The position numbers were made by a program, and so were the translations under genes. DNA of 64,000 bases from Methanobacteriota archaeon (lineage in GTDB: Archaea > Thermoplasmatota > Thermoplasmata > UBA10834): the NCBI GenBank assembly GCA_020725925.1, contig DYTN01000002.1, positions 44,621 to 108,620 on the forward strand. Direction: 5' to 3'. Positions within the stretch are counted from its first letter, which is position 1; each line of letters opens with the position of its first letter. The notes beneath the pieces are model-generated. The model was given only the letters and a program-made list of their open reading frames with translations, had not been told where the DNA came from and did not search any database. Shown here one piece after another: positions 64-46,784 of this stretch.

Positions 64-340
64 GTCCCAGACGGTCAGGAATGATTAACAGGGTAATTGT
101 TCCTTTTGGCGAAGCGCACATGGTCCCGCGGCGCTCGCAGACGGGCGAGGGCGCAGGCGCGCATAATAAGCTATGTGCCCGCGTCCTGTCCAGCATCGAT
201 TCCCATTTGGGTAACTATAAATATTCCGACTCTTCTATTTAGACAGGACGGGACGATGCGCAGGGCCCGACTTGGCCCTGGAACGCAACGGACTTATTCG
301 GGTCCCGTGCTCCCCCAACGAGCCAGGCATAGGAGAGCGG

Positions 341-2755
341 ATGCCGAAGGACGAGTCAGGAAAGGTCACTTGCCCCATCTGCGGCTACGAATCACCGGAA
401 GGTTCCGCCAGGTGCGAGCACTGCTACAGCTCGCTTCTCCCTGTCGCCACCGAGAACGAGGGGCGGGGGAAGGACTCCAAGACGGTTCCAGACGAGAAGG
501 AGTTGGACGAGCTCAAGCTCGTTCCCGGCGTCGGAGAGGCGAAGGCGGAGGCCCTCCACGAGGCAGGCTATCGATCGATCAAGGACCTCAAGAGCGCGCG
601 CGTCGACGACCTCGCGTCCGTCAAGGGCATCGGCGAGAAGCTCGCGACCAAGATCCTCGAGAGCGTGCACAGGATGTCGACAGGGACGACGGATTCGTCC
701 CTCGCGAACTGGCTCTCGGGCGAGGACGACGGCCTGTCGGACTGGCTCTCGGGAGACGAGAGAGCGCGGCCGGAGGCCACGGTCGCCAACAGAGAGCGGC
801 CGCGGGACGATTCGCTCGCGCGCTGGCTAGCCGGCGATGAGGAGGACGTGAGCGTCTGGCTCGACGAGACGAGGACGGCCGAGGTCGAGCCGCACGAGAT
901 CGGTCCGAACGAGCTGCTCGCCCGCGAGGCCGAGCTCATCCAGCTCAGGGAAACCCTGAGGGAGAAGCTGAGGCAGCTCGACATCGGGGATTTCGACGCC
1001 CAGGGCACAATCGAGGAGCTCGCCAAGGTCCGGGGGGACTACGAGCTCGAGAGGAACAAGACGAGGGAGCTCGAGGAAGAGCTGGAGAACGTCAAGCGCG
1101 GGAGCATCGCAGTCATCAAGTTCATCAAGAGCCAGCAGGGCGGCGAGGCCGACCAGGACGCACTCGCCGACAAGCTGGCGTCCGAGATGGCCAACCGTGA
1201 GACGCTCGAGCTGCAAATCATGCAGCTCGAGGAGACCGTCTCGGCACTCAAGGACAAGCTGGACTCGGGCTTGCAGGAGCTGCCCTCGGACGCACAGGCG
1301 CTGAAGCAGCAGGAGATCGCGCTCGCGGAGAGGCAGGCACAGCTGGATGCGATGAAGAAGCAGCTCCTCGCCAAGGAGGAGGCTCTCAGTAGGGGCGCGC
1401 TCGTGGGAGCGCCCGGGGAAGCGGGCGTCGTCGTGGACCCAGGCCTCGTCCAGAAGGTCCAGGAGTATGCGCGCAGGGAGCAGGAGCTACTCGCAAAGGC
1501 CCAGGACCTCGAGTCCAGGCTCGCCCAGGCCAAGCTCGAGACGAAGCAGAAGGAGGAGATGATGAAGCTCTCGAGCGCGCCGGGAAAGACCATGGACAAG
1601 GAGGTCCTGAGGAAGGTCGAGGACGCTCAGCGCATCGAGCGGACGCTCGTCGTCAGGGAACAGGAGGTCCAGCGCCTCAGGGAGGACCTGAAGATCCGCG
1701 AGGAGGAGATCACCAAGCTCAAGGAGCCGATGAAGTACAAGGAGGACGAGATGCTCAGGCGCGAGGAGGACCTCATGTACCGCGAGCGCCTCCTCCAGGA
1801 AGAGCTCAAGAAGGTGAGCCAGGCAAGGGCGGAGCTGACCTCGCAGGACGAGCTCACGCTCAAGAGGCGCCTGGAGGAGCTCCAGGCGGAGGTCACGGTC
1901 AAGGAAGAGGAGATCAGGTCCAAGGAGAAGTACCTCTCGGCCAAGGAGGAGGAGCTGAGGCTCCGCGAGCAGGGCGTCATCACTGAGGAGATCGAGAGGC
2001 GCGAGCAGGAGCGCATGCTCGAGTTCAAGCAGGAGAAGGTGAAGACTGGAACTGCAAGGCTCGACGACCTGCTGCTCGGCGGCGTGCCGTTCGGCTCGAA
2101 CATACTGATCTATGGTCCGCCGTTCACGGGGAAGGAGGTGCTGTTGAGCGCGTTCATCGCCGAGGGGCTCAAGAAGGGCATCCCCGCACTCTGGATACTC
2201 ACCGAGAAGTCCCCCAAGGAGATGCGCGAGGAGATGTCGTACGTCGTGTCTGGGTACGAGGAGTACGAAAAGCTTGGGCTCGTGAGATACGTCGACGCGT
2301 ACTCGAGGAGCATGGGGGACGAGTCCCAGGACCCGTACGCAGAGTACATCGAGTCGCCCACGGACTACGAGTCGATCCAGAAGGCGATTGAGAACGCCAC
2401 GAAGGCGTTCAAGGAGAAGCACGAGTACTACCGCGTGGGCTTCAGGTCGATATCGACGCTCATCGCCTACCTCGACCCGGGCACGGCCTTCAGGTTCCTC
2501 AGCCCCGTCGTGGGCAGGAGGAAGAGGGACAGGGCCGTGGCGGTGTACACCATCGAGAAGGGCGTTCACGGCGAGCAGGAGATACAGATGATAGGCTCGC
2601 TCATGGACGGCATGATCGAGTTCAAGGTGGAGAACCTGAACACGTTCCTGTCCGTGAGGGGCATATGCGACGTCCAGTCCAGGGCATTCATCAGATACTC
2701 CGCAACGAAGACCGGGGTGTCGATCGGCTCGTTCTCGCTCGACCACATTCGGTGA
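341..2755 (+). CDS. Multidomain protein: N-terminal zinc ribbon, helix-hairpin-helix pair, ~450-aa coiled coil, C-terminal KaiC/RecA-like P-loop domain.
   Basis: - ORF 272..2755; preferred start ATG 341 after GGAGAG.
- N-terminal zinc ribbon CPICGY..CEHC.
- HhH motifs (LVPGVGEAKAEALHEAGY, VKGIGEKLATKILESV).
- Long Glu/Leu/Lys/Arg heptad-rich region.
- C-terminus GGVPFGSNILIYGPPFTGKEVLL..VDAY, typical of KaiC-family single domains.
- Walker A is variant (GKE instead of GKT/S). Confidence 0.7.
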   Translation: MPKDESGKVTCPICGYESPEGSARCEHCYSSLLPVATENEGRGKDSKTVPDEKELDELKLVPGVGEAKAEALHEAGYRSIKDLKSARVDDLASVKGIGEKLATKILESVHRMSTGTTDSSLANWLSGEDDGLSDWLSGDERARPEATVANRERPRDDSLARWLAGDEEDVSVWLDETRTAEVEPHEIGPNELLAREAELIQLRETLREKLRQLDIGDFDAQGTIEELAKVRGDYELERNKTRELEEELENVKRGSIAVIKFIKSQQGGEADQDALADKLASEMANRETLELQIMQLEETVSALKDKLDSGLQELPSDAQALKQQEIALAERQAQLDAMKKQLLAKEEALSRGALVGAPGEAGVVVDPGLVQKVQEYARREQELLAKAQDLESRLAQAKLETKQKEEMMKLSSAPGKTMDKEVLRKVEDAQRIERTLVVREQEVQRLREDLKIREEEITKLKEPMKYKEDEMLRREEDLMYRERLLQEELKKVSQARAELTSQDELTLKRRLEELQAEVTVKEEEIRSKEKYLSAKEEELRLREQGVITEEIERREQERMLEFKQEKVKTGTARLDDLLLGGVPFGSNILIYGPPFTGKEVLLSAFIAEGLKKGIPALWILTEKSPKEMREEMSYVVSGYEEYEKLGLVRYVDAYSRSMGDESQDPYAEYIESPTDYESIQKAIENATKAFKEKHEYYRVGFRSISTLIAYLDPGTAFRFLSPVVGRRKRDRAVAVYTIEKGVHGEQEIQMIGSLMDGMIEFKVENLNTFLSVRGICDVQSRAFIRYSATKTGVSIGSFSLDHIR

Positions 2756-2783: not shown

Positions 2784-3230
2784 TCAGGCGACTTCCATCG
2801 AGGACTTGTGGTCCTTCGCGCCCGGGGCCTTCGCTCCCCCTTTCACCTGGATCTGCGGGGGAGGGAGAGGCGGCGGGAGCCCAAGGTCCCTGGATATCAC
2901 GACGGCCGCGGGCATGCAGTTCGTGAAGATGGCGCCGAGGATTGGGTTGAACACCTCGTTCGGAAGCGCCTTGTTCTGAGGCCACTGCGAGGCAATGCTC
3001 TTCGCGTCGCCGTCCCACACGACTCTGCCCTCGATCGTTATCATGCCCATCCCGACATAGCTGATCGTGAACCGGAAATCAATCTGCGCATCCTTGTCTG
3101 AGAGAGCAGAGACGTTGGTCACGTTCGTGGTGTGGTCCACCCTGATCTGCGGAGGACGCTCGCCGAGCTTGGAGTATCTCTTGGCGTCGACGGACGTGAG
3201 TTCGAAGGACTTGATCGGCATATGGTGCAA
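2784..3230 (-). CDS. Hypothetical protein (beta-rich, Pro-rich C-terminus).
   Basis: 148-aa ORF with coding-like composition. No recognisable family. The promoter-like AT-rich stretch and direct repeats lie upstream (3231-3300). Confidence 0.4.
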   Translation of the reverse strand: MHHMPIKSFELTSVDAKRYSKLGERPPQIRVDHTTNVTNVSALSDKDAQIDFRFTISYVGMGMITIEGRVVWDGDAKSIASQWPQNKALPNEVFNPILGAIFTNCMPAAVVISRDLGLPPPLPPPQIQVKGGAKAPGAKDHKSSMEVA

Positions 3231-3294: not shown

Positions 3295-3328
3295 GCCCGG
3301 CTGCCCAGGCTCACAGATGACAGACGAG

Positions 3329-3401
3329 TGCCGTGGGCCGGACTTGAACCAGCGACTTCAAGATCTTCAGTCTTGCACTCTCCCAACTGAGTTACCACGG
3401 C
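3329..3401 (-). tRNA. tRNA-Phe (anticodon GAA), CCA not encoded.
   Basis: - The reverse complement folds as a cloverleaf.
- Acceptor GCCGUGG / CCACGGC.
- D-arm ACUCAGUUGGGAGAGU.
- Anticodon stem CAAGA/UCUUG with loop CUGAAGA.
- T-arm GCUGG-UUCAAGU-CCGGC.
- Discriminator A. Confidence 0.8.
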
Positions 3402-3675: not shown

Positions 3676-4680
3676 ATGACGTCGTCCCCCCAGTACACTC
3701 ACTACTCTACTGACTCGACCGCCGACCGTATCAAGAAATCACCTAGATGGGGCAACGATGAGGGGGTCGCCGCGACGGTCGGCACCATCATGGCGCTCCT
3801 TGTCTTCCTGACCTTCTTCGGCATGTTCACGAACCAATTCGTCCCCGTTTGGATGGGCGACAACGAGAGCGCTCACATGTCGACTGCGATCCAACAGGTC
3901 ACGACGCTCAAGTCGTCAATCGACACCTCGATCTCGATCTACGCGAACAGCCTGGTCGCTGCGGCGCCGATGTCCGTGCCAATCACTCTAAGCGCGTCAG
4001 GCATACCCGTCTTCGCCGCTCCCACTGCGGGCATTCTGCAGTTCACACCCGAGGGAGTCCTTGTGCGCCCAATGTTCAATGTCACATACACCTACCAGTC
4101 CACGGGCGGGTATACGAACACGCTCAGCCCGGCCAACGACGGAAGGTCCGGGGGGATGCTCGACCTGTACTGTCCGAACAGGTACTATGTGGAGCAGCAC
4201 CTGACCTGGGAGAACGGCGCGGTGATACTGAACCAGAGCGACGGCGAGTTCGTCATCGCGGGACCGCAGTTCTCGGTCAGGGACCTGGGCACCGCGGGCT
4301 CGCCCAACAGGGCCGTGATGCTGACCCAGATCTCGCTCCAGGGCACCAACAAGACGATAGGGGGGACTGGCTCGAAGCTCGTCACGGCCGAGATGCAGTT
4401 CGCGGACACGAAGTCCTACGAGAACGCCAACGGTGCCTCGCTGACGATCACCATAGTCACGAAGCACGGCATGGCGTGGGCGAGGTACTTCAACTCGTCG
4501 CTCCAGAGCTCCCCCGCCGGCCTCGACTACGGGACGGACTTCTGGGTCAACTGGACCCTCCACGAGCAGACCAACAAGCTCGACAACTACTACACGGTCA
4601 CAATCACGATAGGCCAGGTCATGATACTCGACCACACGAAGGCGACAGTCAAGCTGTCAGTCGGCGAGCTGGGGGTCTAG
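3676..4680 (+). CDS. Membrane-anchored extracellular beta-rich protein, candidate (minor) pilin or pilus-associated protein of the downstream pilus operon.
   Basis: - ATG at 3676 (the ORF-track TTG at 3661 is less likely).
- A charged N-region is followed by a single hydrophobic helix VAATVGTIMALLVFLTFFGMF.
- A Thr/Ser/Gly/Asn-rich beta-rich ectodomain follows.
- Stop is 12 nt before the secretion ATPase start.
- An AT-rich TTAAATAT box lies ~45 nt upstream. Confidence 0.5.
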   Translation: MTSSPQYTHYSTDSTADRIKKSPRWGNDEGVAATVGTIMALLVFLTFFGMFTNQFVPVWMGDNESAHMSTAIQQVTTLKSSIDTSISIYANSLVAAAPMSVPITLSASGIPVFAAPTAGILQFTPEGVLVRPMFNVTYTYQSTGGYTNTLSPANDGRSGGMLDLYCPNRYYVEQHLTWENGAVILNQSDGEFVIAGPQFSVRDLGTAGSPNRAVMLTQISLQGTNKTIGGTGSKLVTAEMQFADTKSYENANGASLTITIVTKHGMAWARYFNSSLQSSPAGLDYGTDFWVNWTLHEQTNKLDNYYTVTITIGQVMILDHTKATVKLSVGELGV

Positions 4681-4691
4681 GGAGGAAGACG

Positions 4692-6446
4692 ATGGCCGAA
4701 ACACATCCGAAACCGAAGCATGAAGTGCCCGTCAGCGCCCCGAAGATGCCGCTGGGTTCGAGAATCTACCAGGGCTGGGTGGGCGCGCTGAGCAAGATGA
4801 AGTCCTCGCCCGTGGAGGTCAGACAGCCCAGGGGAGCCGCTGCCAGGAAGCGCGACTGGAGCCAGGGCAGGGGTTCGGTGTACACTCAGGTCCCGCCGAT
4901 AACCGACATCGACATCCAGGAGATGGGGTTCTACGGGGTCGAGGAGCCGTTCAGCTACGTCAGGGCCACATACAACGGCGCCACCAGCGAATACCTCCTT
5001 AACGTGATCGAGCCCGCGCTGACCGAGGAGGAGGAAGAGCTGCTGAGGCTGATTAAGGAGACCCTCGAGAAGACCCTCGAGTACGACTGGGAGAAGCTCA
5101 CGGTGATGGACAAGAAGACCTACATCGAGAGGAGCGTGGACAGCTACATCAAGTCCAGGGGGATGGCGATCGAGCCCATCTCCAAGGACAAGGTCTCATA
5201 CTTCATCGCAAGGGACTTCGTCGGCTATGGGCCAATTGACGCCCTGATGAACGACCACCACATCGAGGACGTTTCTTGCGACGGCGTTGGCATCCCGCTG
5301 TTCGTGTTCCACAGCAAGTTCGAGTCGATCAAGACGAACATCATGTTCGAGGACGAGAACGACCTGAACTCGTTCGTGGTCAACCTGGGCCAGAGGTGCG
5401 GGAAGCAGCTCTCGGTCTCAAACCCGATCCTGGACGGCACCGCACCGGAAGGGCACAGGGTCCAGGCGACGTACGCCAGGGAGGTCACGACCAGGGGCGC
5501 ATCGTTCACCATCAGGCGGTTCAAGGAGAAGCCCTTCACCCCCGTCGAGCTCATCAAGTACGGCACCGCATCTCCCGAGATCGTGGCGTACATGTGGCTC
5601 AGTGTGGAGCACGGCGAATCCGCGATCATATGCGGGGGAACAGCGAGCGGCAAGACCGCGACCTTGAACGCCATGGCACTTTTCATACCGCCCGGCGCGA
5701 AGGTCGTCACGATGGAGGACACCAGGGAGATCAACCTGCCCCACGAGAACTGGATCCCCGGCACCACCAGGTCAGGTGTGGGAGAGCGCGGGCCCGACGG
5801 CAAGGCCGCGGGCGAGATAGACATGTACGACCTGGTGAGGGCCTCGTTGAGGCAGAGGCCCAACTACATCATCGTCGGTGAGGTCAGGGGCAAGGAGACC
5901 TACACGATGTTCCAGGCGATGGCCACGGGCCACACAACATTCTCGACGATGCACGCGGACAGCGTCAAGGGCATGGTCAACAGGCTCGAGAACCCCCCCA
6001 TCAACTGCCCGAGGATACTGCTCACCGCCCTGAGGAACGTCATCATACAGACCCATGCCAGGGTGGGCATGGACATGGTCAGGCGCATAAAGCAGCTCAT
6101 AGAGATCGTGGGGTTCGAGCCCGAGACGAACGAACTGATCTCGAACACCGTCTACGAGTGGGACCAGGCAACTGACAAGTTCATCTTCAAGGGGCACAGC
6201 TTCCTGTTCGACAAGATCATGGAGATGAAGAACCTGACGCACGAGGAGCTCCTGCAGGAGTTCGAGCGGAGGGTGGACGTCGTGAAGTACATGGTCGCGA
6301 AGGACATCACTGACCACAGGGAGATCTGGGGGCTCATCAGGGAGTACTACAAGGACTCGAAGGTCACCTCGGAGCGAATCAGGAAGGAGCTCTATGGCTC
6401 CGCCCCCAGGCCCACGATGATACCCGGAGGTGAGGTCGCTGCCTGA
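4692..6446 (+). CDS. Type IV pilus/archaellum-type assembly ATPase (FlaI / TadA / GspE-VirB11 superfamily), paralog 1.
   Basis: - ATG 4692 preceded by GGAGG.
- Walker A GGTASGKTATLNA.
- Asp box TMEDTREINLPHENW.
- Walker B/His box region IIVGEVRGKETYTMFQAMATGH.
- Full-length FlaI-like N-terminal domain. Confidence 0.9.
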   Translation: MAETHPKPKHEVPVSAPKMPLGSRIYQGWVGALSKMKSSPVEVRQPRGAAARKRDWSQGRGSVYTQVPPITDIDIQEMGFYGVEEPFSYVRATYNGATSEYLLNVIEPALTEEEEELLRLIKETLEKTLEYDWEKLTVMDKKTYIERSVDSYIKSRGMAIEPISKDKVSYFIARDFVGYGPIDALMNDHHIEDVSCDGVGIPLFVFHSKFESIKTNIMFEDENDLNSFVVNLGQRCGKQLSVSNPILDGTAPEGHRVQATYAREVTTRGASFTIRRFKEKPFTPVELIKYGTASPEIVAYMWLSVEHGESAIICGGTASGKTATLNAMALFIPPGAKVVTMEDTREINLPHENWIPGTTRSGVGERGPDGKAAGEIDMYDLVRASLRQRPNYIIVGEVRGKETYTMFQAMATGHTTFSTMHADSVKGMVNRLENPPINCPRILLTALRNVIIQTHARVGMDMVRRIKQLIEIVGFEPETNELISNTVYEWDQATDKFIFKGHSFLFDKIMEMKNLTHEELLQEFERRVDVVKYMVAKDITDHREIWGLIREYYKDSKVTSERIRKELYGSAPRPTMIPGGEVAA

Positions 6447-7470
6447 GGTATCTGACGTATTTAGGAAGGTCGAGGTGAAGCCGGCTCAGTACCTCAAGAC
6501 CAAGATCACCATGGGCGAGGGGACCATCGGGCCGCACTCGGTCAGGCTCGTGAAGGGGACGGTGCCGGAGTACATCAAGCTCTCTCCGTTCCAGGACCTC
6601 GCCTGGAGGACCATGGGCAAGCGCGCCAAGACGAAGACCGCGCTCCTGCAGCAGCTCGAGGAGTCGCTCCTGAAGGCCCACATGAAGATCCGGCCGGAGG
6701 AGTACCTGGCGTATGTCCTCATGGCGACACTGGTGACCGCCGTCGTGGGGGTCGTGATAGCCATCGTGGTCGGCGTGCTGATCTTCGGCCTGATGGATGT
6801 CAACATCATGCTCAGGATAATGGTCTCGGTGGCAGCGATTCTGCTCCTTCCGATCATGACCTACTTCCTTCTGTTGGGCTCCCCCGGCTCGAAGGCGAAG
6901 TCCAGGAGCAGGGACATAGACAAGCGCATTGCGGCCGCGATGAGCTTCATATCCGCGATGGCGTCTGCGGACGTCAACATCGATGTCATCTTCAAGGAGC
7001 TGTCGAGGCAGAAGGTGTACGGGGAGATAGCCCACGAGTCCGCCTGGATCACGAGGGACACGGAGCTCCTCGGGTCCGATATCCTGTCCGCCATCAAGAA
7101 GGCCGCCAGGAGGTCCCCATCCGCGAAGTTCCAGGACTTCCTACAGGGCGTCATCACAACCTCCACCTCGGGCGGGCAGCTCAAGCCGTACTTCCTGCTC
7201 AAGGCGGAGGAGTTCCAGAAGGAGAACAAGCTCGCCCTCAAGTCCCAGATGGAGACCCTCGGGATGCTTGCTGAATCCTTCGTGACGGTCGTGGTGGCGT
7301 TCCCGCTGTTCCTCGTGCTCATCCTGGCGATCATGGCAATCGTCGGCGGCGGAGGCGACCCGGACTTCATGGTCATGATGCTCTATCTGATCGTCCTGGG
7401 GATGATCCCTGTGTCCCAGTTCGGCTTCGTGTTCGTCATCTGGAACATGTCAAAGGAGGCTTCGATGTAG
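6430..7470 (+). CDS. Pilus platform membrane protein with a single T2SSF domain (TadB/TadC/FlaJ-like), half 1.
   Basis: - Several TM helices.
- The cytoplasmic helical domain RDIDKRIAAAMSFISAMASA..QDFLQGV is typical of GspF/TadC family domains.
- Overlaps the upstream ATPase stop, indicating operon coupling. Confidence 0.75.
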   Translation: MRSLPEVSDVFRKVEVKPAQYLKTKITMGEGTIGPHSVRLVKGTVPEYIKLSPFQDLAWRTMGKRAKTKTALLQQLEESLLKAHMKIRPEEYLAYVLMATLVTAVVGVVIAIVVGVLIFGLMDVNIMLRIMVSVAAILLLPIMTYFLLLGSPGSKAKSRSRDIDKRIAAAMSFISAMASADVNIDVIFKELSRQKVYGEIAHESAWITRDTELLGSDILSAIKKAARRSPSAKFQDFLQGVITTSTSGGQLKPYFLLKAEEFQKENKLALKSQMETLGMLAESFVTVVVAFPLFLVLILAIMAIVGGGGDPDFMVMMLYLIVLGMIPVSQFGFVFVIWNMSKEASM

Positions 7471-8406
7471 ATGCCGCCGCAGAGGAAGATGTCGGAGCAG
7501 GAGCGGGAGAGGGCCCTCAAGAGGATCCTCGCGACTGAGCGGGCCGACAAGACCAGGACTATCGTGGGCGGCTCCATCGGAGTGGCTGCGGTCCTCATAT
7601 TCGCGGGCGTCGTGGACTACATAGGCAGTGCTGACCTGCCGCTGGACGCCATCGACTGGATCATATTCGCCATAGCCGCGATCATCGGCCCGTACGGCTT
7701 CTACGTGAGCGCCAGGGAGAAACGCGTGAGGGAGATTGAGATGAGGCTGCCCGACTTCCTCAGGGATGTCGCAGAGGCCGGGAGGTTCGGCATGACCCTC
7801 GCGGATGCCATCGTCGTCGCGAGCACCGGCAGGTACGGCAGGCTCACGCCGGAGATAAAGAAGATGGCCGCGCAGATAGAGTGGGGCGTGCCCGCCTCGG
7901 AGGCCATCAGGCTGTTCTCCGAGAGGGTCAAGACGCCCCTGGTGACGAGGATGGCATCCATCATCATGAAGGCGAACGATGCGGGCGGCAACGTCGCCGA
8001 CGTGCTGAGCATGGTCTCGCACGACGCGAAGGAGACCATCCTGACGCAGGAGGAGCGGGGCGTGACGATGCAGACCTATGTGCTCGTCGTGTACATCGCC
8101 TTCTTCGTGTTCATCGCGACAATCCTGATCCTGCAGGGCCAGTTCCTCCCGAAGATGGAGGAGGCGGGCACGCAGGTGAGCGAGGCGGCGGAGGCCCAGG
8201 GCGTCGGGGAGATACCGGGAGTGAGCATACAGGTCGACATCATACCAACAGTGGGGTTCATCTTCCTGCTGTCCGTGCTCGTACATGCGATTGGCGACGG
8301 GCTCCTGGCGGGCGTGATACAGAAGGGGAGCATCCCGATAGGCATGAGGCACAGCTTCATCATGCTGCTGGCCGGCTTCGTGTCCCTGAGGATCATAGGA
8401 GGCTGA
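7471..8406 (+). CDS. Pilus platform membrane protein with a single T2SSF domain (TadC-like), half 2.
   Basis: - Start codon abuts the previous stop (TAGATG).
- TM helices.
- T2SSF-like cytoplasmic domain LPDFLRDVAEAGRFGMTLADAI..RLFSERV. Confidence 0.75.
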   Translation: MPPQRKMSEQERERALKRILATERADKTRTIVGGSIGVAAVLIFAGVVDYIGSADLPLDAIDWIIFAIAAIIGPYGFYVSAREKRVREIEMRLPDFLRDVAEAGRFGMTLADAIVVASTGRYGRLTPEIKKMAAQIEWGVPASEAIRLFSERVKTPLVTRMASIIMKANDAGGNVADVLSMVSHDAKETILTQEERGVTMQTYVLVVYIAFFVFIATILILQGQFLPKMEEAGTQVSEAAEAQGVGEIPGVSIQVDIIPTVGFIFLLSVLVHAIGDGLLAGVIQKGSIPIGMRHSFIMLLAGFVSLRIIGG

Positions 8407-8410
8407 CAGG

Positions 8411-10126
8411 ATGACAGCAGAGACTGCGCAACCAAGGATCGTGCCTCTGGAGGCCCCGACGGAGGAGGCCAAGGAGAAGAAGAAGGGGCCTGGCCTGAAG
8501 TCCGCGTACTACAACTTCCTGCTCAAGCTCAAGCCCAAGCCCCTCATGGTCGCGCTCCCGAAGACGGAAGCGACCGTGGACATGTCCAGGATAACGGAGA
8601 TACCGAAGCTGACCGAGCCGAACATCGACGAGGTGGAGACGGCCCCGGTCAAGCAGAACTACTCCTATGTCAGGATCAAGTACGACAACAAGTCGAACGA
8701 GTACCTCTACGAGGTGATCGAGCCGCGGCTCTCAGAGGACGAGCGGGACGTGCTGAGCCTGCTCAAGGAGACGCTCGTCGCCTCCGTCGAGCACATGACG
8801 GAGGTCTCGACTGAGGAGAAGGAGAAGTACCTGAGGAGAATAGTCGAGCAGCTGATGCTCCAGCTGGCCGTCACCCTCAACCCCGTCTCGAAGGAGAGAG
8901 TGATGTACTACATAGCCAGGGACTTCATCGGGTACGGCGTCATCAACGTGATGATGATGGATCCGAACGTCGAGGACTGCTCCTGCGATGGCGTCGACAT
9001 CCCGTTCTACATATACCACAGGAAGTACGGTTCGATCAGGTCCAACCTCAGGTTCGCGGCCGAGGTGGAGCTTGACGGATTCGTCGTCTGGCTGGCCCAG
9101 AAGTGCGGCAAGCACATATCCGTGGCGAGCCCGCTCCTGGACGCCACCATCCCCGACGGCTCGAGGCTCCAGGCAACCCTGGGCAAGCACGTGACCAAGA
9201 GGGGCTCCTCGTTCACCATCAGGCGGTTCAAGGAGAACCCCTTCACGCCCCTGGACCTGCTCAAGTTCAAGACCATGGGCACCGAGATGATGGCCTACCT
9301 GTGGATCGCCATCGAGCACGGGCAGTCGATGCTCGTGTGCGGAGGCACCGCGAGCGGCAAGACGACCACGCTCAACGCCGTCCTGCTGTTCATCCCGCCC
9401 CAGATGAAGATAGTCTCGATAGAGGACACTAGGGAGCTCAACCTCCCGCATGAGAACTGGGTCCCGGGCCTGACTAGGGAGGGCTTCGGCGGCAAGAGCG
9501 CGATCACCGGCCGCGCCACGGGCGAGATAGACATGTTCGACCTGCTCACATCGGCCATGAGGCAGAGGCCCCAGTACCTGATGGTCGGAGAGGTCAGAGG
9601 CAAGGAGGCGTACGTCGTCTTCCAGGCCATGGCCACGGGCAAGACCTGCTACTCCACCTTCCACGCAGAGGATGTCCAGGCGATGGTGCACAGGATGGAG
9701 AACGACCCCATCAACCTCCCCAGGGCGCTCATCACGGCGCTCAATGTCGTGCTCCTCCAGGCGCAGGTCAAGGTCGGCACGAAGATGACCAGGCGGGTCA
9801 AGTCGCTCACTGAGATCGTCGGGTTCGACCCCGAGACCAACGAGCTCATCACCAACTCTGTCTACACCTGGAACCCGGCGGACGACACCTTCAACTACAG
9901 CGGCCACAGCTATGTCTACGAGAAGGTCAGGATGGCCAGGAACTGGTCCCCCAGGGAGATGGAGAGGGAGCTCAAGAGGCGCGTGGACATCCTGGAGTAC
10001 ATGAAGAAGATAGGCATGGACAGCCACAGGAAGGTCGCGACGATCATCTCGGCGTACTACAAGGACCCCGAGAAGGTCATGAAAGAGGTCCGGGCGAAGC
10101 TGGCCGAGGGCGCGGAGAGGATCTGA
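8411..10126 (+). CDS. Type IV pilus assembly ATPase (FlaI/TadA family), paralog 2.
   Basis: - AGGAGG 8 nt upstream of the ATG.
- Walker A GGTASGKTTTLNA.
- Asp box SIEDTRELNLPHENW.
- MVGEVRGKEAYVVFQAMATG.
- Roughly 50-55% identical to the 4692..6446 product over its full length. Confidence 0.9.
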   Translation: MTAETAQPRIVPLEAPTEEAKEKKKGPGLKSAYYNFLLKLKPKPLMVALPKTEATVDMSRITEIPKLTEPNIDEVETAPVKQNYSYVRIKYDNKSNEYLYEVIEPRLSEDERDVLSLLKETLVASVEHMTEVSTEEKEKYLRRIVEQLMLQLAVTLNPVSKERVMYYIARDFIGYGVINVMMMDPNVEDCSCDGVDIPFYIYHRKYGSIRSNLRFAAEVELDGFVVWLAQKCGKHISVASPLLDATIPDGSRLQATLGKHVTKRGSSFTIRRFKENPFTPLDLLKFKTMGTEMMAYLWIAIEHGQSMLVCGGTASGKTTTLNAVLLFIPPQMKIVSIEDTRELNLPHENWVPGLTREGFGGKSAITGRATGEIDMFDLLTSAMRQRPQYLMVGEVRGKEAYVVFQAMATGKTCYSTFHAEDVQAMVHRMENDPINLPRALITALNVVLLQAQVKVGTKMTRRVKSLTEIVGFDPETNELITNSVYTWNPADDTFNYSGHSYVYEKVRMARNWSPREMERELKRRVDILEYMKKIGMDSHRKVATIISAYYKDPEKVMKEVRAKLAEGAERI

Positions 10127-10236: not shown

Positions 10237-13200
10237 CTACTGGTTCTCCTCGTCGCCGCCTTCCTCGCCCTCTTTCTTCTCCTCGGCGCCCAACGGCGTC
10301 TTTATGATCTTCTTGGGCACGACCTTGCGGTCGATCGGTCTCCTGATGACCATCCTCGGAGCGGCTGCCGGGGGCACTGCCGGTGGCGCACCAGCCTCCC
10401 TCTCCGCTGGAGCTGCTGGCTCCACTGCAGCCGGTGCCGTGGGCGGTGGGCCCCTGCGCACAGGCGGTGGGGCGGCTCTCTCGGCGCCGAACACGGTGCC
10501 GCACTTGTGGCACACGGTGGCCTCCTTCGGGTTTAGCGTTCCGCAGACCGGGCACGGGATCGGCCCCTCCTTCTTCTTCTCCTCTTCCTTGGCGAGCCAG
10601 TCCTCGAAGCTGATGTACGCCGGCTGTCTCCTCCACCACTCCTCGAAGGCCCTGTCGGTGAACTTCTTGCCCAGCTCCGGCTTGGCGAGCTCACGGTACT
10701 TGGAGACCATGTCGTCGTACTGCTTCCTCATGCGCTCCAAGTAGTCCGCCTCCTCCTCGACCTCGCCGATGAACTTCACGCCACAGTTCGGGCACTCAGC
10801 GGACTCGGCGGGTATCCATGCGCCGCACTCGGAGCACTTCATCGTACCAGCTTCGAACTCCACGCCACACTTCGGGCACCTCTTGCTCGCAGCGGGTATG
10901 AACGCGCCGCACTCGCCGCACTCGACGAGCTTGCCGAGGCCATACACGTACGTGTATATGGTGAAGCCCGCGACGACGCCGACCACCGCCACTATGATCA
11001 CGATCCAGACCCACCACGGGAACAGGCCGCCCTCGACGGCCGCGCTGATGGTGACCGTCGTGGTGGCATCGTAGTTCTGGCCCAGCACGACCGTCCTCAC
11101 GGCATACGAGCCCGAGTCCAGCTCAGCGGGTATCCTCAGGAAGACTATGATGCTCCCGTCGGCGTCGGTCGTCTCGACCGTGCTGTTGGAGTAGGGCACG
11201 ACCAGCGGGTTGTCGGGGTCGCTCGGATCGATCAGCCAGAAGACCACTCCCGGCAGGCCCACCACGCCTTGGGACGTCCCCTGGTAAGTTATCGTGGCCG
11301 TGATGATCATGATGTCGCCGGCGTCGTACTCGTTCGCGTCGGTGGTCACGGTGACCGAGACCTGCAGCTGCTGTATCGTGAAGGTGTGGTTGGCGAAGTT
11401 GTTGGTCTCGTATGGCTCCGACACGGAGTAGGCCGGATCGAGCCAGACCCACAGCTCGTATTCTCCTGGCGTTGTGAGGTTGATCAGCCAGCTCACGGAG
11501 ATCAGAAGCACGTTGTCAGTCGCGTTGGCGGAGATGTTGTACTCCAGGCCGGTGTGTATCGTGTGGTTGTAGCCCGCAGCGTTCCTCACGCCGATCCGCA
11601 CCTCAAAGACGCTGACGACGCTGCCGCCCAGGTTGCGCACCCTGGCATTGACGGTCACGTTCCTCCCGAAGGTCTCGCCCGTGGTGTTGCTCCCGCCGCG
11701 CTGGACGAATATCTCGTCACCGTCGATCGACAGGTCCGCCCTGATGTCCAGCACGGTGATCGACCCTGTGAGGATGTTGTCCGCATAGGACTCCTCGATG
11801 CGGGACTGCTCGGGGTTGACTATCACGACGATGCTGGCAACGACACTCTGGGTGAGCACTGGGGCAGGGAACTCTATCTTGACCGGCCACTTCCCACTCT
11901 CAGATGTCAGGCTCACGATGACGGTCGTTGTCTTGAGCTCCGAGATGCCCGAGTAGTTGAAGTACACCCAGACCTCCGGGTTGGAGAACGGCATTGGGTT
12001 GGAGTTGCTGAGGTTCACTTCGACTGTGATTGTCTGGCCGCCAGCGACCGAGCCGGCAGGGGATATCTTGAGGTCCGTCAGCTTCAGGTCCGGATGCTCG
12101 TACACGTCGATGTAGACGTAGTCCCAGTTGTTCGTGGTGTACAGCTCCTCGACCCCGTCGGGCAGGCTGGCCACTACTGTGATCCAATGCAGCTCGGGCG
12201 TGGAAGGTGTCCACGGCATTGAGACGAACGTATAGGAGCCAGGAGCGATGCTCGGGATCGTCGTCGTCCCGACCAAGTCCCCTCCGTCGAAGATGTCCAC
12301 AGTCACATCGTAGCTGGTGTTGCTGCCGATGTTGCTTATCTTCGCGACCAGGGTCGTGGGAACATCGACTTCGACGTAGGTATCAGTCGCATAGATCCAT
12401 GGGTCCCACGGGTAGCCATCAGACACGTAGACGTCCGGGAGGCTCTTGACAGTGACGAACCCAGACCCAGTAGCTGGTGCTGTGTTGTTGAGCTCAGGGA
12501 TCGTGTCCAGCGGGTCGACGACAACGATGATTCTGTGCGCATTTGGGTCCAACGGGCTGTCAGCAGTCCAATACCACACAGCGGTGGCATTCGAGCCCGG
12601 CTCGATGACGGGTATCACCGTGGATCCGAAAAGCTCGTCCGACTCAGGGATTCCGTTGTCCCAAGCGTCGTCGTAGAAGTCCACCCTGACATCATATGCC
12701 CTCGCGATACCGTCATTGTGAATGTTGGCGTACACGGTGACGTTCTGCCCAATCCTGGGGTACACAGGGTCAGTCCAAACAGGCACCGGAGGATCATGCA
12801 CTGCCAAGTCCGGCAACGCATCCTCGATGGTCACTGTCAGGTAGGTCACGTTTCTCCCGAGGGGAGTCGTGTAGGGCAGGACGCTCGTCGAAACCTCGCC
12901 GTCGGGGTAGTAGTTCTGCGAGTTGAACGTGTAGGTCACGTTCACCCAGTAGTTGCCCACGTAGCCTTCTGTCGGTCCTGCGCTCGTCAATCTCTGCGCG
13001 AGCGCGTTCACCTTGGCGACACCAAGCGCATCAGGTGCGGAGCTGCTCACAGCAGAGCTTGCGTTTATGCCACTGATGTAGTACCTCGCGGTCACCAAGG
13101 CGCCTGGCAAAGGCTTGCCGACACCGTCCAGGACGGTGACATGTATCCATCTGTATATCAGAGCCGCTGCGTCGCGCTCGACTGTTATGGAGGGAGCGCT

Positions 13201-15408
13201 TGTGTTCGTGAACTCGCCGACTGTGGTTCCAGACAGGATGGGAGCGGCCTGAAGGTCAGAGTCCTTGACGATGATGCTTGCATTGGAGTCCCATTCGGAA
13301 GTGATGACCTTGTCAATCGCCGAGTTCACGATCAGGACTTGAGCGTTCTCGCGGGCCACGATGCTCACACCGACCAGCGATGAATTCAGCACCTGGAGCC
13401 TGCCCTCACCCTGGACGATTATGTCGATCGGCAACGCACTAGACATCGTGGATCCTTCGAACACGAGGAGTGCGGGGTTCGACAGAGTCCCGTCGACGTA
13501 GACCGTCCTCTGGTTCGCGGAGGTCTGCACTATCTGGAAGACCGCGTTCGTGAACCTGAGCGTGCCACCTGCGGCGACGATCGTGTCGCCAGCGTGGTAG
13601 TACGTCATATCGTATATGTGCAAGGAGGGCGGGACAACCAGCCACCTGGCTGGGTCAGGGCTCTCAGCGGATGCCCCCAGCAATGACACGGTTACATCAT
13701 CGCTCTGATCCGAAGCTGTCATAGCTGGATAAGCGTCAAGAGAGAAGGTTTCTGTCGACGAGTAGTTGATAACGCCAATCATTGCACTTCCCGTGATAGC
13801 ATAGGAGCCGACGTAGAGCGATTCGGGGATACCGGCATTCGTGATTATGTCAGAGAGATACGGTATCGCGGCTCTACCATCTGACTTTGTGACGTTGAAT
13901 GTTAGGGCAGTCTCTCCCATATAGCCAAGGACCTCAGGAGGCGGGCTCATGGACAGCCCCGTCGGAGTATAATAGAAGGCTTGCTCGCCCTGGAGCTCGG
14001 TGATTCCCGTGAAATGAGCAACAACGGAGGCACCTTCAATTGGAACGCCATACTCATCTCCCACGGTGACATTCAACCATCTGTAGATGAAGGCATCAGC
14101 ACCGACGGTGAACTCGACTCCGATCCAGTCAAACTCCACGAAACCAGTGCCGACACCGCCGTTGTTCTCGAACCGCACATTGAGTTCCATTATGTCTGCG
14201 ACAGTTGGCACAGCTCCCAACGGTAGGTCAAAGGACATCAGAGTCCCAGGTGGGTCAGTCACACGCGGGATAACGCTAGAATCAGAGTAGACCCCTGACT
14301 CCGGACTCCACTGAATGGCAGCAGTCCCAGCATATGTAGGGGCGACAGAGTACTCCCCAATGACGGAGGCGGAACTCACTGAAAGCGCCGGAGCTAGAGT
14401 GCCGATATCCCATGTGTCAACCTCAAGTATCATTGTCGGCTGCACTTGGATTGTAGAACCGTCGTCGAGCCTGATATTTCCGATTGGCTGACCGGTGTTG
14501 TCATCTCCTCCTTGAGCAAGAGGAACTGCCGTTTGTAGACTACCACCAAGAGAAACCACTGCTGGCGCCCGGTCCGCAAGAGCGCCTGCATACGTCTCGA
14601 AAGATGTGCCATACAAATACGCGTGAGACAGATCATCCAACGCGAGGGTGTTGTGCACATACCAGTGCCCAAGCGTTATCGCAGGTCCGAAGTCCACAGC
14701 GAGGAAACTGTTGACTGCCAACAGGGTCGAGTCCCCGTTCAGCGTGATGTTCTTGGCGAACTGGGCATTCGTCGGATACTCGGGAAGGTCCAATATGCTC
14801 GAGTCGTACAGCTCCAACGTCGAGTCCGTGAGCGTTATCGCCGGCCCGTCATCCGCCGAATCGTAGGTTATGGCACCGCTCGACCCGACGACATACTGGG
14901 AGACGAGCTCTCCCGGCAACGCATGAATCGTGCACTCGTCCAGGGACATCGTGCCGCCGTTCACCAGGGTGATGTTCCCGGGGAACATGAACTCCGATAG
15001 GGCAGAAGCCTCTACCACACCGCCGTCCACAGTGAGCTCGAGGAACGGCCACGGGTTGATCTGGTCCAAGTAAGTGGTTATGACGCCGTGGTCCAGAGTG
15101 AGCGTCCCACCTGCGAACACGGTGATGGAGTGCTTCAATGTCGGGTCGTTGTTGCTGATGACGCTCAGGGTGGCGTCCCTGACTATCAGCGTACCCCCGC
15201 TCCTGACCTCCACGTCGCCGTCGATGGGCTGTTCGATGTTCTCGATGACGTAGGTCTCGTTCTCGACGATCAGGTCGCCCTCGGCGGCTTCCGTTGTCGG
15301 GGCGCCCGAGAGGAACAACAGCCCCGCGAACGCAGAGAACACAAGACTCACGACAACCAAAGCACTCAGAGTTCTATTGGCAAGGAGCATGTCAGCTTTG
15401 CCCTTCAT
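10237..15408 (-). CDS. Giant cell-surface protein (~1720 aa): signal peptide, right-handed beta-helix-like region, several CARDB-like Ig-fold domains, C-terminal TM helix, and a cytoplasmic tail carrying three zinc-ribbon motifs, a Pro/Ala-rich stretch and an acidic tail.
   Basis: - ORF 10237..15480; likely start ATG 15408 (MKGKADMLLANRTLSALVVVSLVFSAFAGLLFL).
- Repeated NxT sequons and beta-strand-rich repeats.
- CARDB-like blocks (PDLAVHDPPVP..VTVYANIHNDG..; PDVYVSDGYPW..; ADLSIDGDEIFVQRGG..).
- C-terminal TM helix WWVWIVIIVAVVGVVAGFTIYTYV.
- Cytoplasmic tail: CGECGAFIPAASKRCPKCG, CSECGAWIPAESAECPNCG, CPVCGTLNPKEATVCHKCG. Confidence 0.8.
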   Translation of the reverse strand: MKGKADMLLANRTLSALVVVSLVFSAFAGLLFLSGAPTTEAAEGDLIVENETYVIENIEQPIDGDVEVRSGGTLIVRDATLSVISNNDPTLKHSITVFAGGTLTLDHGVITTYLDQINPWPFLELTVDGGVVEASALSEFMFPGNITLVNGGTMSLDECTIHALPGELVSQYVVGSSGAITYDSADDGPAITLTDSTLELYDSSILDLPEYPTNAQFAKNITLNGDSTLLAVNSFLAVDFGPAITLGHWYVHNTLALDDLSHAYLYGTSFETYAGALADRAPAVVSLGGSLQTAVPLAQGGDDNTGQPIGNIRLDDGSTIQVQPTMILEVDTWDIGTLAPALSVSSASVIGEYSVAPTYAGTAAIQWSPESGVYSDSSVIPRVTDPPGTLMSFDLPLGAVPTVADIMELNVRFENNGGVGTGFVEFDWIGVEFTVGADAFIYRWLNVTVGDEYGVPIEGASVVAHFTGITELQGEQAFYYTPTGLSMSPPPEVLGYMGETALTFNVTKSDGRAAIPYLSDIITNAGIPESLYVGSYAITGSAMIGVINYSSTETFSLDAYPAMTASDQSDDVTVSLLGASAESPDPARWLVVPPSLHIYDMTYYHAGDTIVAAGGTLRFTNAVFQIVQTSANQRTVYVDGTLSNPALLVFEGSTMSSALPIDIIVQGEGRLQVLNSSLVGVSIVARENAQVLIVNSAIDKVITSEWDSNASIIVKDSDLQAAPILSGTTVGEFTNTSAPSITVERDAAALIYRWIHVTVLDGVGKPLPGALVTARYYISGINASSAVSSSAPDALGVAKVNALAQRLTSAGPTEGYVGNYWVNVTYTFNSQNYYPDGEVSTSVLPYTTPLGRNVTYLTVTIEDALPDLAVHDPPVPVWTDPVYPRIGQNVTVYANIHNDGIARAYDVRVDFYDDAWDNGIPESDELFGSTVIPVIEPGSNATAVWYWTADSPLDPNAHRIIVVVDPLDTIPELNNTAPATGSGFVTVKSLPDVYVSDGYPWDPWIYATDTYVEVDVPTTLVAKISNIGSNTSYDVTVDIFDGGDLVGTTTIPSIAPGSYTFVSMPWTPSTPELHWITVVASLPDGVEELYTTNNWDYVYIDVYEHPDLKLTDLKISPAGSVAGGQTITVEVNLSNSNPMPFSNPEVWVYFNYSGISELKTTTVIVSLTSESGKWPVKIEFPAPVLTQSVVASIVVIVNPEQSRIEESYADNILTGSITVLDIRADLSIDGDEIFVQRGGSNTTGETFGRNVTVNARVRNLGGSVVSVFEVRIGVRNAAGYNHTIHTGLEYNISANATDNVLLISVSWLINLTTPGEYELWVWLDPAYSVSEPYETNNFANHTFTIQQLQVSVTVTTDANEYDAGDIMIITATITYQGTSQGVVGLPGVVFWLIDPSDPDNPLVVPYSNSTVETTDADGSIIVFLRIPAELDSGSYAVRTVVLGQNYDATTTVTISAAVEGGLFPWWVWIVIIVAVVGVVAGFTIYTYVYGLGKLVECGECGAFIPAASKRCPKCGVEFEAGTMKCSECGAWIPAESAECPNCGVKFIGEVEEEADYLERMRKQYDDMVSKYRELAKPELGKKFTDRAFEEWWRRQPAYISFEDWLAKEEEKKKEGPIPCPVCGTLNPKEATVCHKCGTVFGAERAAPPPVRRGPPPTAPAAVEPAAPAEREAGAPPAVPPAAAPRMVIRRPIDRKVVPKKIIKTPLGAEEKKEGEEGGDEENQ

Positions 15409-15521
15409 AAGTTCACCAACCCAGAGATGCTGGGTACTGCGGGAGAAGTAAGCAGTTCGGCCATATAAAAAGGTATTCACCAGGTTTTCATGTCGGAGCA
15501 GACTGTTTTTCGGCAGTCTGG

Positions 15522-16517
15522 CTAACCGCTTTTTCGCTTCACTATTTTCTTGACAAATATCTGCGGTTTCCTCGTCTCCGAGGGCTTGTCAGAGACATCT
15601 TCCGAGCCGACCTTCACCTCGAGCTTCGTCAGCGATTCCTTGATGTTCACGCCGCAGGCGTAGCACATCAGGGCGTCCCGGCTGACCATCGTCTTGCAGT
15701 TGAGGCAGGGGATCTCTTCATCCTCGGACCCCTCCTCTGCCTTCACGGGCTCGCCGAACTCCTCCTCGCGTATCTTCTGCCCGCAGGCGTAGCACATGAT
15801 CGCGTCCTTGCTGATCACGGTCCTGCAGCCGGGGCAGAGCATCTCGTCCTCGCTCAGCGTGGCTGCGAGCGCGGGCTCGGGCTCAATCCTGACCGGCGCG
15901 GCTGCCACCTTGGTCAGCATGTCCTTCTGGCGGTCCAGGAGCTTCCTCGCGTCCTCCGAGAGCTTCTCCCTGTCGCGCCTGAGGGACTCCTCCTCCTCCG
16001 CGAGCGCGCGCTCCCTCGCGACGAGCGTGTCCCTCCGGGCAGTGATCTGCTCGAGCACCCGCTGGATCTCCTCCTCGGACTTCTTCAGCAGGTCCTCCCT
16101 GCTCAGGAGCCTCTTCCGCCTTTCGGTCACATCCGCCTGGAGGGTGTTGATCTCCGCAAGCCTGTCCGAGGCGTCCTTCTCCCTCGCCTCCGCAGACGTG
16201 ACCGCCGCCTTCGATACCGCCTCGAGCTTGGCTAGCTCGGCGGCCCTCGAATCAAGCTGGCCCGCCCTCTCCTTAAGGGATGACTCCTGTCTCTTGAGTT
16301 CCTCAACGCGCGCCTCGACCGAGGATTCCTTCTGCCTGATCGAATCCTCCTTCTCCCTGAGGCGCTGCTCGAGCGCCTCGACCTCGGACTTCTGCTTCAG
16401 GACGTCCTCGCGCTCCGCCTTGAGCTCGAGGTCCTTCTTCCTGACCTCGGCCTCCTGGGTCTTGAGGCGCTTGACCGCGTCCTCGATTATCTGGGAGATC
16501 GTCTGGTCTTCTGCCAT
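15522..16517 (-). CDS. Coiled-coil protein with two C-terminal zinc ribbons (DZR-type).
   Basis: - ~230 aa of Glu/Lys/Arg/Leu-rich heptads.
- Then CPGCRTVISKDAIMCYACG and CLNCKTMVSRDALMCYACG.
- Followed 80 nt later, on the same strand, by a KaiC-like gene. Confidence 0.7.
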   Translation of the reverse strand: MAEDQTISQIIEDAVKRLKTQEAEVRKKDLELKAEREDVLKQKSEVEALEQRLREKEDSIRQKESSVEARVEELKRQESSLKERAGQLDSRAAELAKLEAVSKAAVTSAEAREKDASDRLAEINTLQADVTERRKRLLSREDLLKKSEEEIQRVLEQITARRDTLVARERALAEEEESLRRDREKLSEDARKLLDRQKDMLTKVAAAPVRIEPEPALAATLSEDEMLCPGCRTVISKDAIMCYACGQKIREEEFGEPVKAEEGSEDEEIPCLNCKTMVSRDALMCYACGVNIKESLTKLEVKVGSEDVSDKPSETRKPQIFVKKIVKRKSG

Positions 16518-20046: not shown

Positions 20047-22191
<2,145 letters not shown>

Positions 22192-46783: not shown

Positions 46784-46784
46784 G

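Follow-up and report, generated by a model that had tools for sequence, protein, structure and literature searches.

Here we describe a type IV pilus assembly operon with two motor ATPases in a 64,000-nucleotide stretch of contig DYTN01000002.1, referred to below as the window (G+C ~62%). The operon is genuine and intact, and it belongs to an uncultured Thermoplasmata archaeon known only from metagenome-assembled genomes. With a probability of roughly 0.8, we assign it to the assembly machinery of an adhesive type IV pilus of the CdiP type, within Makarova's euryarchaeal Clade 2. In all other archaeal pilus and archaellum operons studied to date, one ATPase performs every task; the Thermoplasmatota cassette is the exception. 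Domains were called with Pfam and NCBIfam profile searches, covering ~23 open reading frames (ORFs) of the window. A preliminary description of this DNA had placed five genes in a row between positions 3676 and 10126, and all five were recovered there on the plus strand:

3676..4680, plus strand: pilin-like protein, 334 amino acids, one N-terminal hydrophobic segment, weak DUF7289 match
4692..6446, plus strand: ATPase E1, 584 amino acids, T2SSE (E = 2.4e-32), PilB3_C (29 bits)
6430..7470, plus strand: platform N-half, 346 amino acids, one T2SSF domain (E = 3.8e-12), ~4 predicted transmembrane segments
7471..8406, plus strand: platform C-half, 311 amino acids, one T2SSF domain (E = 3.4e-17), 4-5 predicted transmembrane segments
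8411..10126, plus strand: ATPase E2, 571 amino acids, T2SSE (E = 1.6e-32), PilB3_C (39 bits)

The intergenic spacings are 11, -17, 0 and 4 nucleotides in order, the negative value marking the 17-nucleotide overlap of the platform N-half start with the end of E1, and they fit a single transcription unit. The two-ATPase layout is not new, having been described for Aciduliprofundum and Cuniculiplasma. What is added here is the breadth of its distribution, evidence for a need of both motors, an inventory of the sites specific to each paralogue, and a set of conserved accessory genes.

Platform, motors and pilins

For Aciduliprofundum sp. MAR08-339, Table S4 of Makarova et al. 2016 (PMC4858521) lists an arCOG02911 pilin, an ATPase of 545 amino acids, two TadC proteins of 332 and 290, and an ATPase of 550, followed by a convergent 1720-residue "Zn-ribbon domain protein" (arCOG01917). 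This six-gene layout, found in both Aciduliprofundum boonei and MAR08-339, is identical gene for gene to that of the window. The two-ATPase locus is remarked on in the main text of that study (PMC4858521), although it has only been catalogued and never studied. Its flanks differ from those described here, with SpeB, EF-P and LepB upstream and no neighbor listed that resembles the KaiC-HhH or SecB-like proteins of the window.

In cultured Cuniculiplasma divulgatum, the cluster CSP5_0712-0715 has an equivalent layout and the cells bear pili (Golyshina et al. 2016, PMC5155288). According to the report on this system (ISME J 2025, PMC12448462), the machinery is encoded as CdiPE1-CdiPFa-CdiPFb-CdiPE2 with the pilins encoded elsewhere, CdiPFa matches the N-half of AapF and CdiPFb the C-half, and the structure of the filament, an adhesive pilus made of the pilin CdiPB, has been solved (PDB 8REY). 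That report regards the two ATPases as without parallel in other archaeal operons and states that the second "remains enigmatic". The role of the second motor, raised in the preliminary description, is a genuine question. The window and the CdiP system share the core order of ATPase, N-half, C-half and ATPase, as well as the phylum, and both have an adjacent pair of pilin genes away from the machinery, the small pilins of the window being homologous to CdiPB. By position, E1 is the counterpart of CdiPE1 and E2 that of CdiPE2. The large pilin-like gene before E1 is an addition of the window, and the distance from pilins to machinery is ~35 kb here versus ~500 kb in C. divulgatum. The accessory genes described below (encoding the 827-residue, SecB-like, CARDB, coiled-coil Zn-ribbon and KaiC-like proteins) are unmentioned in the parts of the CdiP report that were searched (PMC12448462).

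The reading of the platform as two single-T2SSF-domain genes is borne out by profile alignments. The N-half aligns to positions 4-246 of 555 in the ArlJ profile and 29-218 of 484 in the UpsF profile, the C-half to positions 260-536 and 285-437 of the same profiles, and the BasF profile is divided between them in the same way. Compared directly, the two platform proteins have no detectable similarity. They are the two halves of one two-domain platform and not mutual duplicates. The N-half is the counterpart of CdiPFa, TadB or EpdJ/K and the C-half that of CdiPFb or TadC; the C-terminal motif of the latter half, G-L-L-A-G-V-I-Q-K-G, resembles the printed CdiPFb C-terminus. Two tadC-like genes are also reported for Methanococcus and for many euryarchaeal systems of Clade 2 (Makarova et al. 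2016, PMC4858521). Splitting of the platform is commonplace among the pili of euryarchaeal Clades 1 and 2 and therefore has no diagnostic value.

E1 and E2 share 47% identity across 568 aligned positions. For both, the best solved relative is Archaeoglobus fulgidus GspE2 (PDB 2OAP), which E2 matches with 438 bits (E = 4e-130) and E1 with 412 bits (E = 4e-122) at 43-47% identity; matches to the FlaI structure reach 308 and 277 bits, and those to the CpaF structure 136 and 146 bits, for E2 and E1, respectively. The top-scoring NCBIfam model is the FlaI equivalog (E2 427, E1 413 bits), although both scores lie below its cut-off of 550. Scores are also below cut-off for the TadA model TIGR03819 (E2 142, E1 145 bits; cut-off 373) and the PilT family model TIGR01420 (E2 44, E1 48 bits; cut-off 319), and far under that of the PilB model. 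In both proteins, ~235-240 residues precede the T2SSE match and align to the N-terminal part of AfGspE. These comparisons place E1 and E2 as AfGspE/PilB3-like ATPases of euryarchaeal Clade 2, not of the Epd, TadA, FlaI or PilT types. A. fulgidus GspE2 and Haloferax volcanii PilB3/PilC3 belong to single-ATPase systems. The PilB3_C domain is present in both window ATPases, and H. volcanii PilB3 likewise assembles PilA pilins encoded elsewhere in the genome.

The preliminary description had likened the locus to both Tad and Epd pili. Like the window, bacterial Tad/Flp systems build the platform from two single-T2SSF proteins, TadB and TadC, and lack PilT. The likeness stops at the motors, where Tad has a single bifunctional ATPase, TadA/CpaF. 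A TadA/CpaF-type ATPase was rejected on the TadA model scores and on the CpaF structures, which match far below 2OAP, and a Tad pilus was rejected on the same scores, the split platform alone not being diagnostic. None of the scanned window ORFs matched a Flp pilin, and no search was aimed at secretin or TadZ. A PilT-type retraction ATPase was likewise rejected, the N-terminal part being long rather than short and the PilT scores being far under the cut-off. The Epd assignment did not hold either. The Methanococcus Epd pilus is, like the window system, an archaeal type IV pilus with a two-gene platform, both genes being needed for piliation. However, it has one ATPase, EpdL, and EpdJ and EpdK, which had been named as ATPases for comparison, are paralogous platform proteins (PMC4371748); the statement that Epd needs two ATPases was mistaken. 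The Epd peptidase EppA requires Gln at +1 (PMC4371748), whereas the predicted pilins of the window have Val there. With two ATPases against one, Val against Gln and Clade 2 against Clade 1, and with 2OAP as the best relative and the Aciduliprofundum equivalents placed in Clade 2, an Epd pilus was rejected.

Both ATPases retain the Walker A, Asp box, Walker B, His box and RR motifs. Across 70 E1 and 76 E2 orthologues, the Walker A G/K/T, Asp box E/D/E, Walker B G/E/R and His box G/T/H residues and the RR residues are invariant, and both proteins look catalytically competent, in agreement with the initial view of two intact paralogues. The loss of catalytic residues in one ATPase, which the preliminary description had named as refuting, is therefore not seen. 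We also identified 29 positions that are fixed yet different between E1 and E2, clustered at E2 residues 207-263 and 379-504. Based on general knowledge of PilB/GspE hexamers, both regions may lie at or near subunit interfaces, and the fixed sites can guide mutagenesis.

Three predicted pilins could serve as substrates, one being the 334-residue product of the first operon gene. Its DUF7289 match (E = 2.9e-4, 20.9 bits) is under the Pfam cut-off of 27. The protein has a predicted class III signal, ...W-D-x-D-E-G | V-A-A-T-V-G-T-I-M, in which G30, V31 and the following hydrophobic stretch are invariant in 44 homologues. In an AlphaFold2 model (pLDDT, the predicted local distance difference test, 76), residues 1-31 are disordered, a long helix spans residues 32-89, and an all-beta domain follows, so the modeled outline resembles the "lollipop" shape of a pilin. 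A Foldseek comparison of this model with the PDB returned no relative (all E > 0.01, template modelling score ~0.1). The gene occupies the slot of the arCOG02911 pilin in Aciduliprofundum, and its product is predicted to be pilin-like, the positional counterpart of the arCOG02911/DUF7289 "minor pilin" of Clade 2. The other two pilins are encoded ~35 kb from the machinery:

45294..45857, minus strand: PilA-type small pilin, Pilin_N (E = 4e-13)
44554..45117, minus strand: second PilA-type small pilin, Pilin_N (E = 5.2e-10), 176 nucleotides from the first

Their predicted signals are ...K-D-A-E-A | V-S-P-V-I-A-T-I-L-M-V and ...PA|VSPVIATILLV, respectively. The 45294-45857 protein matches the solved pilins 8FJ5 (E = 4e-8) and 8REY (E = 1.6e-4), and the 44554-45117 protein matches the same two (E = 1.9e-6 and 8.2e-4); 8REY is CdiPB of C. 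divulgatum, and the similarity is modest. The 45294-45857 protein is a candidate major pilin on these matches. All three candidates have the prepilin motif in conserved form, with a charged residue and Gly or Ala before the cleavage site and a hydrophobic stretch after it, and the +1 residue is Val in each (EG|VAAT, EA|VSPV and PA|VSPV).

Distribution and age of the ATPase pair

To define the distribution of the cassette, one genome per species was scanned, yielding 80 loci, all from Thermoplasmata or from metagenome-assembled genomes labeled "Methanomassiliicoccales". In a census of these by ORF calling and BLASTP, both ATPases are present in 73 of the 73 informative loci, those with enough flanking sequence, and the order E1, N-half, C-half, E2 is kept in 72 of them. 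There are ten exceptions in the census, each interrupted by a contig end. The cassette is not peculiar to one acidophile, being fixed in at least ~70 species-level genomes of uncultured Thermoplasmata. In two loci, L083 and L066, the ATPase and platform genes are broken into several fragments by frameshifts or assembly errors; these are the sole deviations from the canonical order.

Measured against one reference locus (L002), mean identity is 77% for E2, 71% for E1 (a mean lowered by truncated loci in which only the paralogue matches), 68% and 67% for the platform halves and 66% for GyrA. The pilin-like protein averages 48%, only over the 16 loci that gave a match. E2 is the slower-evolving paralogue, and among its 7,878 homologue clusters (E <= 1e-20), the best 120 each show 81% identity or more. 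E1 and E2 are thus under very strong constraint and more conserved than GyrA. Since both motors keep their catalytic residues and exceed gyrase in conservation, both must matter.

We next compared the ATPases in a neighbor-joining tree built from corrected p-distances, which included 150 representatives, the orthologues of 16 loci, AfGspE, FlaI and CpaF. All 100 bootstraps recover E1 as monophyletic, and E2 likewise, and the two are exclusive sisters in only 10% of replicates. Other Thermoplasmatota ATPases branch beside E1 and beside E2, and these relatives mostly sit in complete single-ATPase loci with the order pilin-ATPase-T2SSF-T2SSF. Likewise, the two Aciduliprofundum ATPases fall in separate Clade 2 sub-branches of a published tree (PMC4858521), which matches the non-sister placement of E1 and E2 here. 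Given this placement and the single-ATPase relatives, the pair is old, and E1 and E2 are ancient paralogues that both descend from assembly-type ATPases, with the caveat that the deep nodes of the tree are weak. A search against representatives clustered at 50% returned mostly long Thermoplasmatota proteins, with no named reference (such as EpdL, PilB3 or PilB4) among the matches.

Two distant cassettes, L086 and L087, also have the order ATPase-T2SSF-T2SSF-ATPase. The second ATPase of L086 is 50% identical to E2, 44% to E1 and 42% to its own partner, with a bootstrap of only 51-64% for its pairing with E2. L086 was considered as a Cuniculiplasma locus and rejected, as the C-terminus of its platform departs from that printed for CdiPFb. 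Two further related loci, from other Thermoplasmatota, carry pilus genes with a single ATPase and have unusual fusions and neighbors. In L090 (8001-10421), the 806-residue ATPase has an N-terminal DnaA-like AAA domain, and in L084 (6552-8901), genes for a Roadblock/LC7 protein, a small-GTPase/KaiC-matching protein and more KaiC-like proteins come before those of the pilus.

Proposed roles of the two motors

In the mechanism we propose, prepilins, among them the 334-residue product of the operon and the pair of PilA-type pilins encoded at 44.5-45.9 kb, would insert into the membrane and be cut after Gly or Ala by a prepilin peptidase encoded outside the window. A platform made of both half-proteins would then polymerize the pilins, powered by hexameric ATPases in the cytoplasm. 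E1 and E2 would form two separate homo-hexamers that dock by turns on the single platform. One motor may polymerize the remote PilA-type major pilins, while the other may handle the large operon pilin, for priming or for a second structure, or may operate under different conditions. KaiC-like ATPases would probably select the motor that is engaged, as ArlH does for ArlI, and the convergent CARDB/Zn-ribbon surface protein could be a fixed partner of the machine.

Two alternating homo-hexamers with different assembly jobs or conditions are our tentative preference, held at rather less than even odds. Established models of type IV machines allow only one hexamer under the platform at once. We favor alternation because of this limit, the descent of both paralogues from assembly-type ATPases, their lack of likeness to PilT and the absence of twitching in C. 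divulgatum. It is unlikely, in our estimation, that E1 and E2 instead build a composite motor, that is, a hetero-oligomer (an alternating hexamer or stacked rings) acting as one bidirectional motor on the platform. Such a motor would fit their co-occurrence in all informative loci, the tight operon coupling (spacings of -17, 0 and 4 nucleotides), the retention of all catalytic residues checked in both, and the clustering of the 29 paralogue-specific sites in two regions that may be near subunit interfaces. However, the relatives in both subclades function alone, in single-ATPase loci, and interface-specific substitutions would equally explain how two homo-hexamers are kept unmixed. We know of no hetero-hexamer in the GspE/PilB/FlaI/VirB11 superfamily, which also counts against a composite motor. 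An extension/retraction pair, in which one paralogue polymerizes and the other depolymerizes as an independent archaeal counterpart of PilB/PilT, we rate as improbable to a like degree. Bacterial PilB and PilT are likewise two paralogous hexameric ATPases that serve one platform, PilC. Archaea lack PilT, yet the Aap pili of Sulfolobus acidocaldarius retract (PMC11178785), and the CdiP report raises this possibility for its own two ATPases (PMC12448462). The same report states that C. divulgatum, with its equivalent cassette, adhered and was tested for twitching, and none was seen. Moreover, one ATPase suffices for the retraction of Aap and of Tad pili (PMC11178785, PMC6920026, PMC11300603), which makes a second motor unnecessary for that purpose. 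PilT is also very divergent from PilB and lacks the long N-terminal domain, whereas the window paralogues match in architecture, both having a full N-terminal domain and PilB3_C, with scores of 48 (E1) and 44 (E2) bits against the PilT cut-off of 319. That one of the two has degenerated into a non-catalytic regulator or scaffold is scarcely credible. Only the generic outcome of gene duplication speaks for it, and it is opposed by the invariance of the catalytic residues in the 70 E1 and 76 E2 orthologues and by the conservation of both proteins above that of GyrA.

We also considered whether the locus could encode an archaellum, or a machine for secretion or DNA uptake that makes no filament, in place of an adhesive pilus, and regard this as very improbable. 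FlaI is the best-scoring NCBIfam model for both ATPases (413 and 427 bits), and KaiC-like, ArlH-related genes lie nearby. However, the FlaI scores are under the cut-off, the small pilins are of the Pilin_N type and not archaellins, and the scores of the KaiC-like proteins fall well short of the cut-offs for ArlH and FlaH. Annotation covered ~23 ORFs of the window, none of which matched an archaellin, ArlF or ArlG. The preliminary description had also decided against an archaellum, and this part of its argument stands. Its statement that no arlH homologs are present nearby needs correction, given the KaiC-like proteins, distant relatives of ArlH, at 272-2755 and 16597-17313. DNA uptake could be linked to the HhH DNA-binding domain of the upstream 827-residue protein and to the need for type IV-like pili in Methanococcus transformation, although uptake would be an extra use of a pilus and not an alternative identity. 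Against any non-pilus function stands the homologous CdiP system, which makes an adhesive pilus of solved structure (8REY, PMC12448462).

Several points weigh against the CdiP-type assignment and against motors that alternate between assembly jobs. The division of labor between E1 and E2 is purely inferred. Only one filament type, CdiPB, was resolved in C. divulgatum (PMC12448462), and the idea of two substrates is therefore weakened. The strict co-occurrence and tight operon coupling fit an obligate composite motor equally well. In the tree, only the monophyly of E1 and that of E2 are robust, the deep nodes being poorly supported, and E1 and E2 were likened to CdiPE1 and CdiPE2 by position, not by sequence. 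The predicted pilin assignment of the 334-residue protein rests on architecture, synteny and a sub-threshold Pfam match, with no PDB relative found by Foldseek. Finally, no A24 prepilin peptidase or EppA was found in the window by inspection of four multi-transmembrane ORFs and a scan for the GxGD motif, and the peptidase must therefore be encoded elsewhere.

The two-motor question is testable and has already been posed in print. Resolving the two roles would tell an extension/retraction pair of archaeal origin from a composite motor. It is doubtful, though worth stating, that E1 and E2 are an antagonistic or obligately cooperating pair that arose within the archaeal assembly ATPases, independently of PilB/PilT. 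If so, in the antagonistic version one paralogue would be a dedicated depolymerizer, and the cooperating version would be the first known hetero-hexamer in this ATPase superfamily. The KaiC-like ATPases and the Zn-ribbon/coiled-coil and SecB-like proteins would then control or feed the motor pair.

Conserved neighbors

The first five genes listed below flank the operon and recur in related loci; the last entry lies beside the small pilins:

272..2755, plus strand: Zn ribbon/HhH/coiled-coil/KaiC protein, 827 amino acids, KaiC (E = 1.6e-19), HHH_5 (E = 8.5e-14), DUF7504
2784..3221, minus strand: SecB-like-fold protein, 145 amino acids, divergent from the operon, AlphaFold2 pLDDT 82.5
10237..15480, minus strand: giant surface protein, 1747 amino acids, CARDB (E = 5.9e-33), DZR, Zn_ribbon
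15522..16517, minus strand: coiled-coil and double Zn-ribbon protein, 331 amino acids, DZR, Zn_ribbon_3, no transmembrane segment, cytoplasmic
16597..17313, minus strand: single-domain KaiC-like ATPase, 238 amino acids, KaiC family (83 bits)
46058..48208, minus strand: three consecutive KaiC-like genes, 241, 198 and 276 amino acids, KaiC (E = 1.1e-20, 1.3e-8 and 8.9e-53)

The 1747-residue protein has an N-terminal anchor, an ectodomain of ~1430 residues with CARDB repeats, one C-terminal transmembrane segment (1486-1504) and, on the cytoplasmic side, a tail bearing three Zn ribbons, and it is predicted to be a type I membrane protein. A homologue occupies the equivalent position in every related locus that has a downstream flank. 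The preliminary description had placed a giant adhesin immediately downstream of the operon. The gene is indeed there, but it lies on the opposite strand, convergent with the operon, and an adhesin role for this CARDB protein is only assumed.

The 331-residue protein is conserved across many related loci. The 238-residue KaiC-like ATPase keeps 59-93% identity among related loci, and its average conservation exceeds that of GyrA; its FlaH subfamily score is 30 bits versus a cut-off of 194. By analogy with the action of ArlH on ArlI, it is a candidate regulator of the motors. The three KaiC-like genes at 46058-48208 directly adjoin the pair of small pilins, and their ArlH equivalog scores are 49.5 and 30 bits versus a cut-off of 215. 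Five KaiC-like proteins are thus linked to pilus genes within the window, scoring 17-50 bits overall against ArlH/FlaH cut-offs of 194-215. An association of KaiC-family ATPases with pili of Clade 2 is already known (PMC4858521).

The 827-residue protein consists of an N-terminal Zn ribbon, an HhH domain, four acidic repeats (L/V-x-x-W-L-x-G-D/E), a coiled coil of ~350 residues and a C-terminal KaiC-like ATPase domain; it has no transmembrane segment and is cytoplasmic. It lies upstream in most related loci with an upstream flank, these being the closer, lower-numbered ones, and is absent from ~12 more distant loci (for example L058, L059, L063, L067, L070 and L071). Cytoplasmic Zn ribbons recur in three of the conserved neighbors, namely the 1747-residue protein tail and the 331- and 827-residue proteins, which suggests a shared docking module beneath the membrane.

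The 145-residue protein co-occurs with the 827-residue protein, the ~12 distant loci lacking both. It has no Pfam or NCBIfam match. Its AlphaFold2 model contains four strands and two helices, and the best Foldseek matches in the PDB are SecB and the SecB-like chaperone Rv1957 (probability 1.00, template modelling score 0.5-0.6). A proline-rich linker and an invariant "SSMEVA" tail close the protein. In SecB, the tail binds the zinc finger of SecA, and Zn-ribbon proteins abound in the present locus; to our knowledge, SecB is not known from archaea. The modeled fold raises the possibility of an export chaperone whose clients would be prepilins or the giant surface protein.

A tRNA-Phe (GAA) gene lies inside the conserved locus at 3328-3401 on the minus strand, between the SecB-like and pilin-like genes. 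Further downstream, gyrA (17438-20036, minus strand) is split over two frames, with residues 8-393 of a related GyrA aligning in frame -3 (20018..18888) and residues 345-848 in frame -1 (19006..17495). This split indicates that the frame shifts near 18.9-19.0 kb, through an assembly error or because the gene is a pseudogene. The neighboring gyrB (20047-22179) looks intact.

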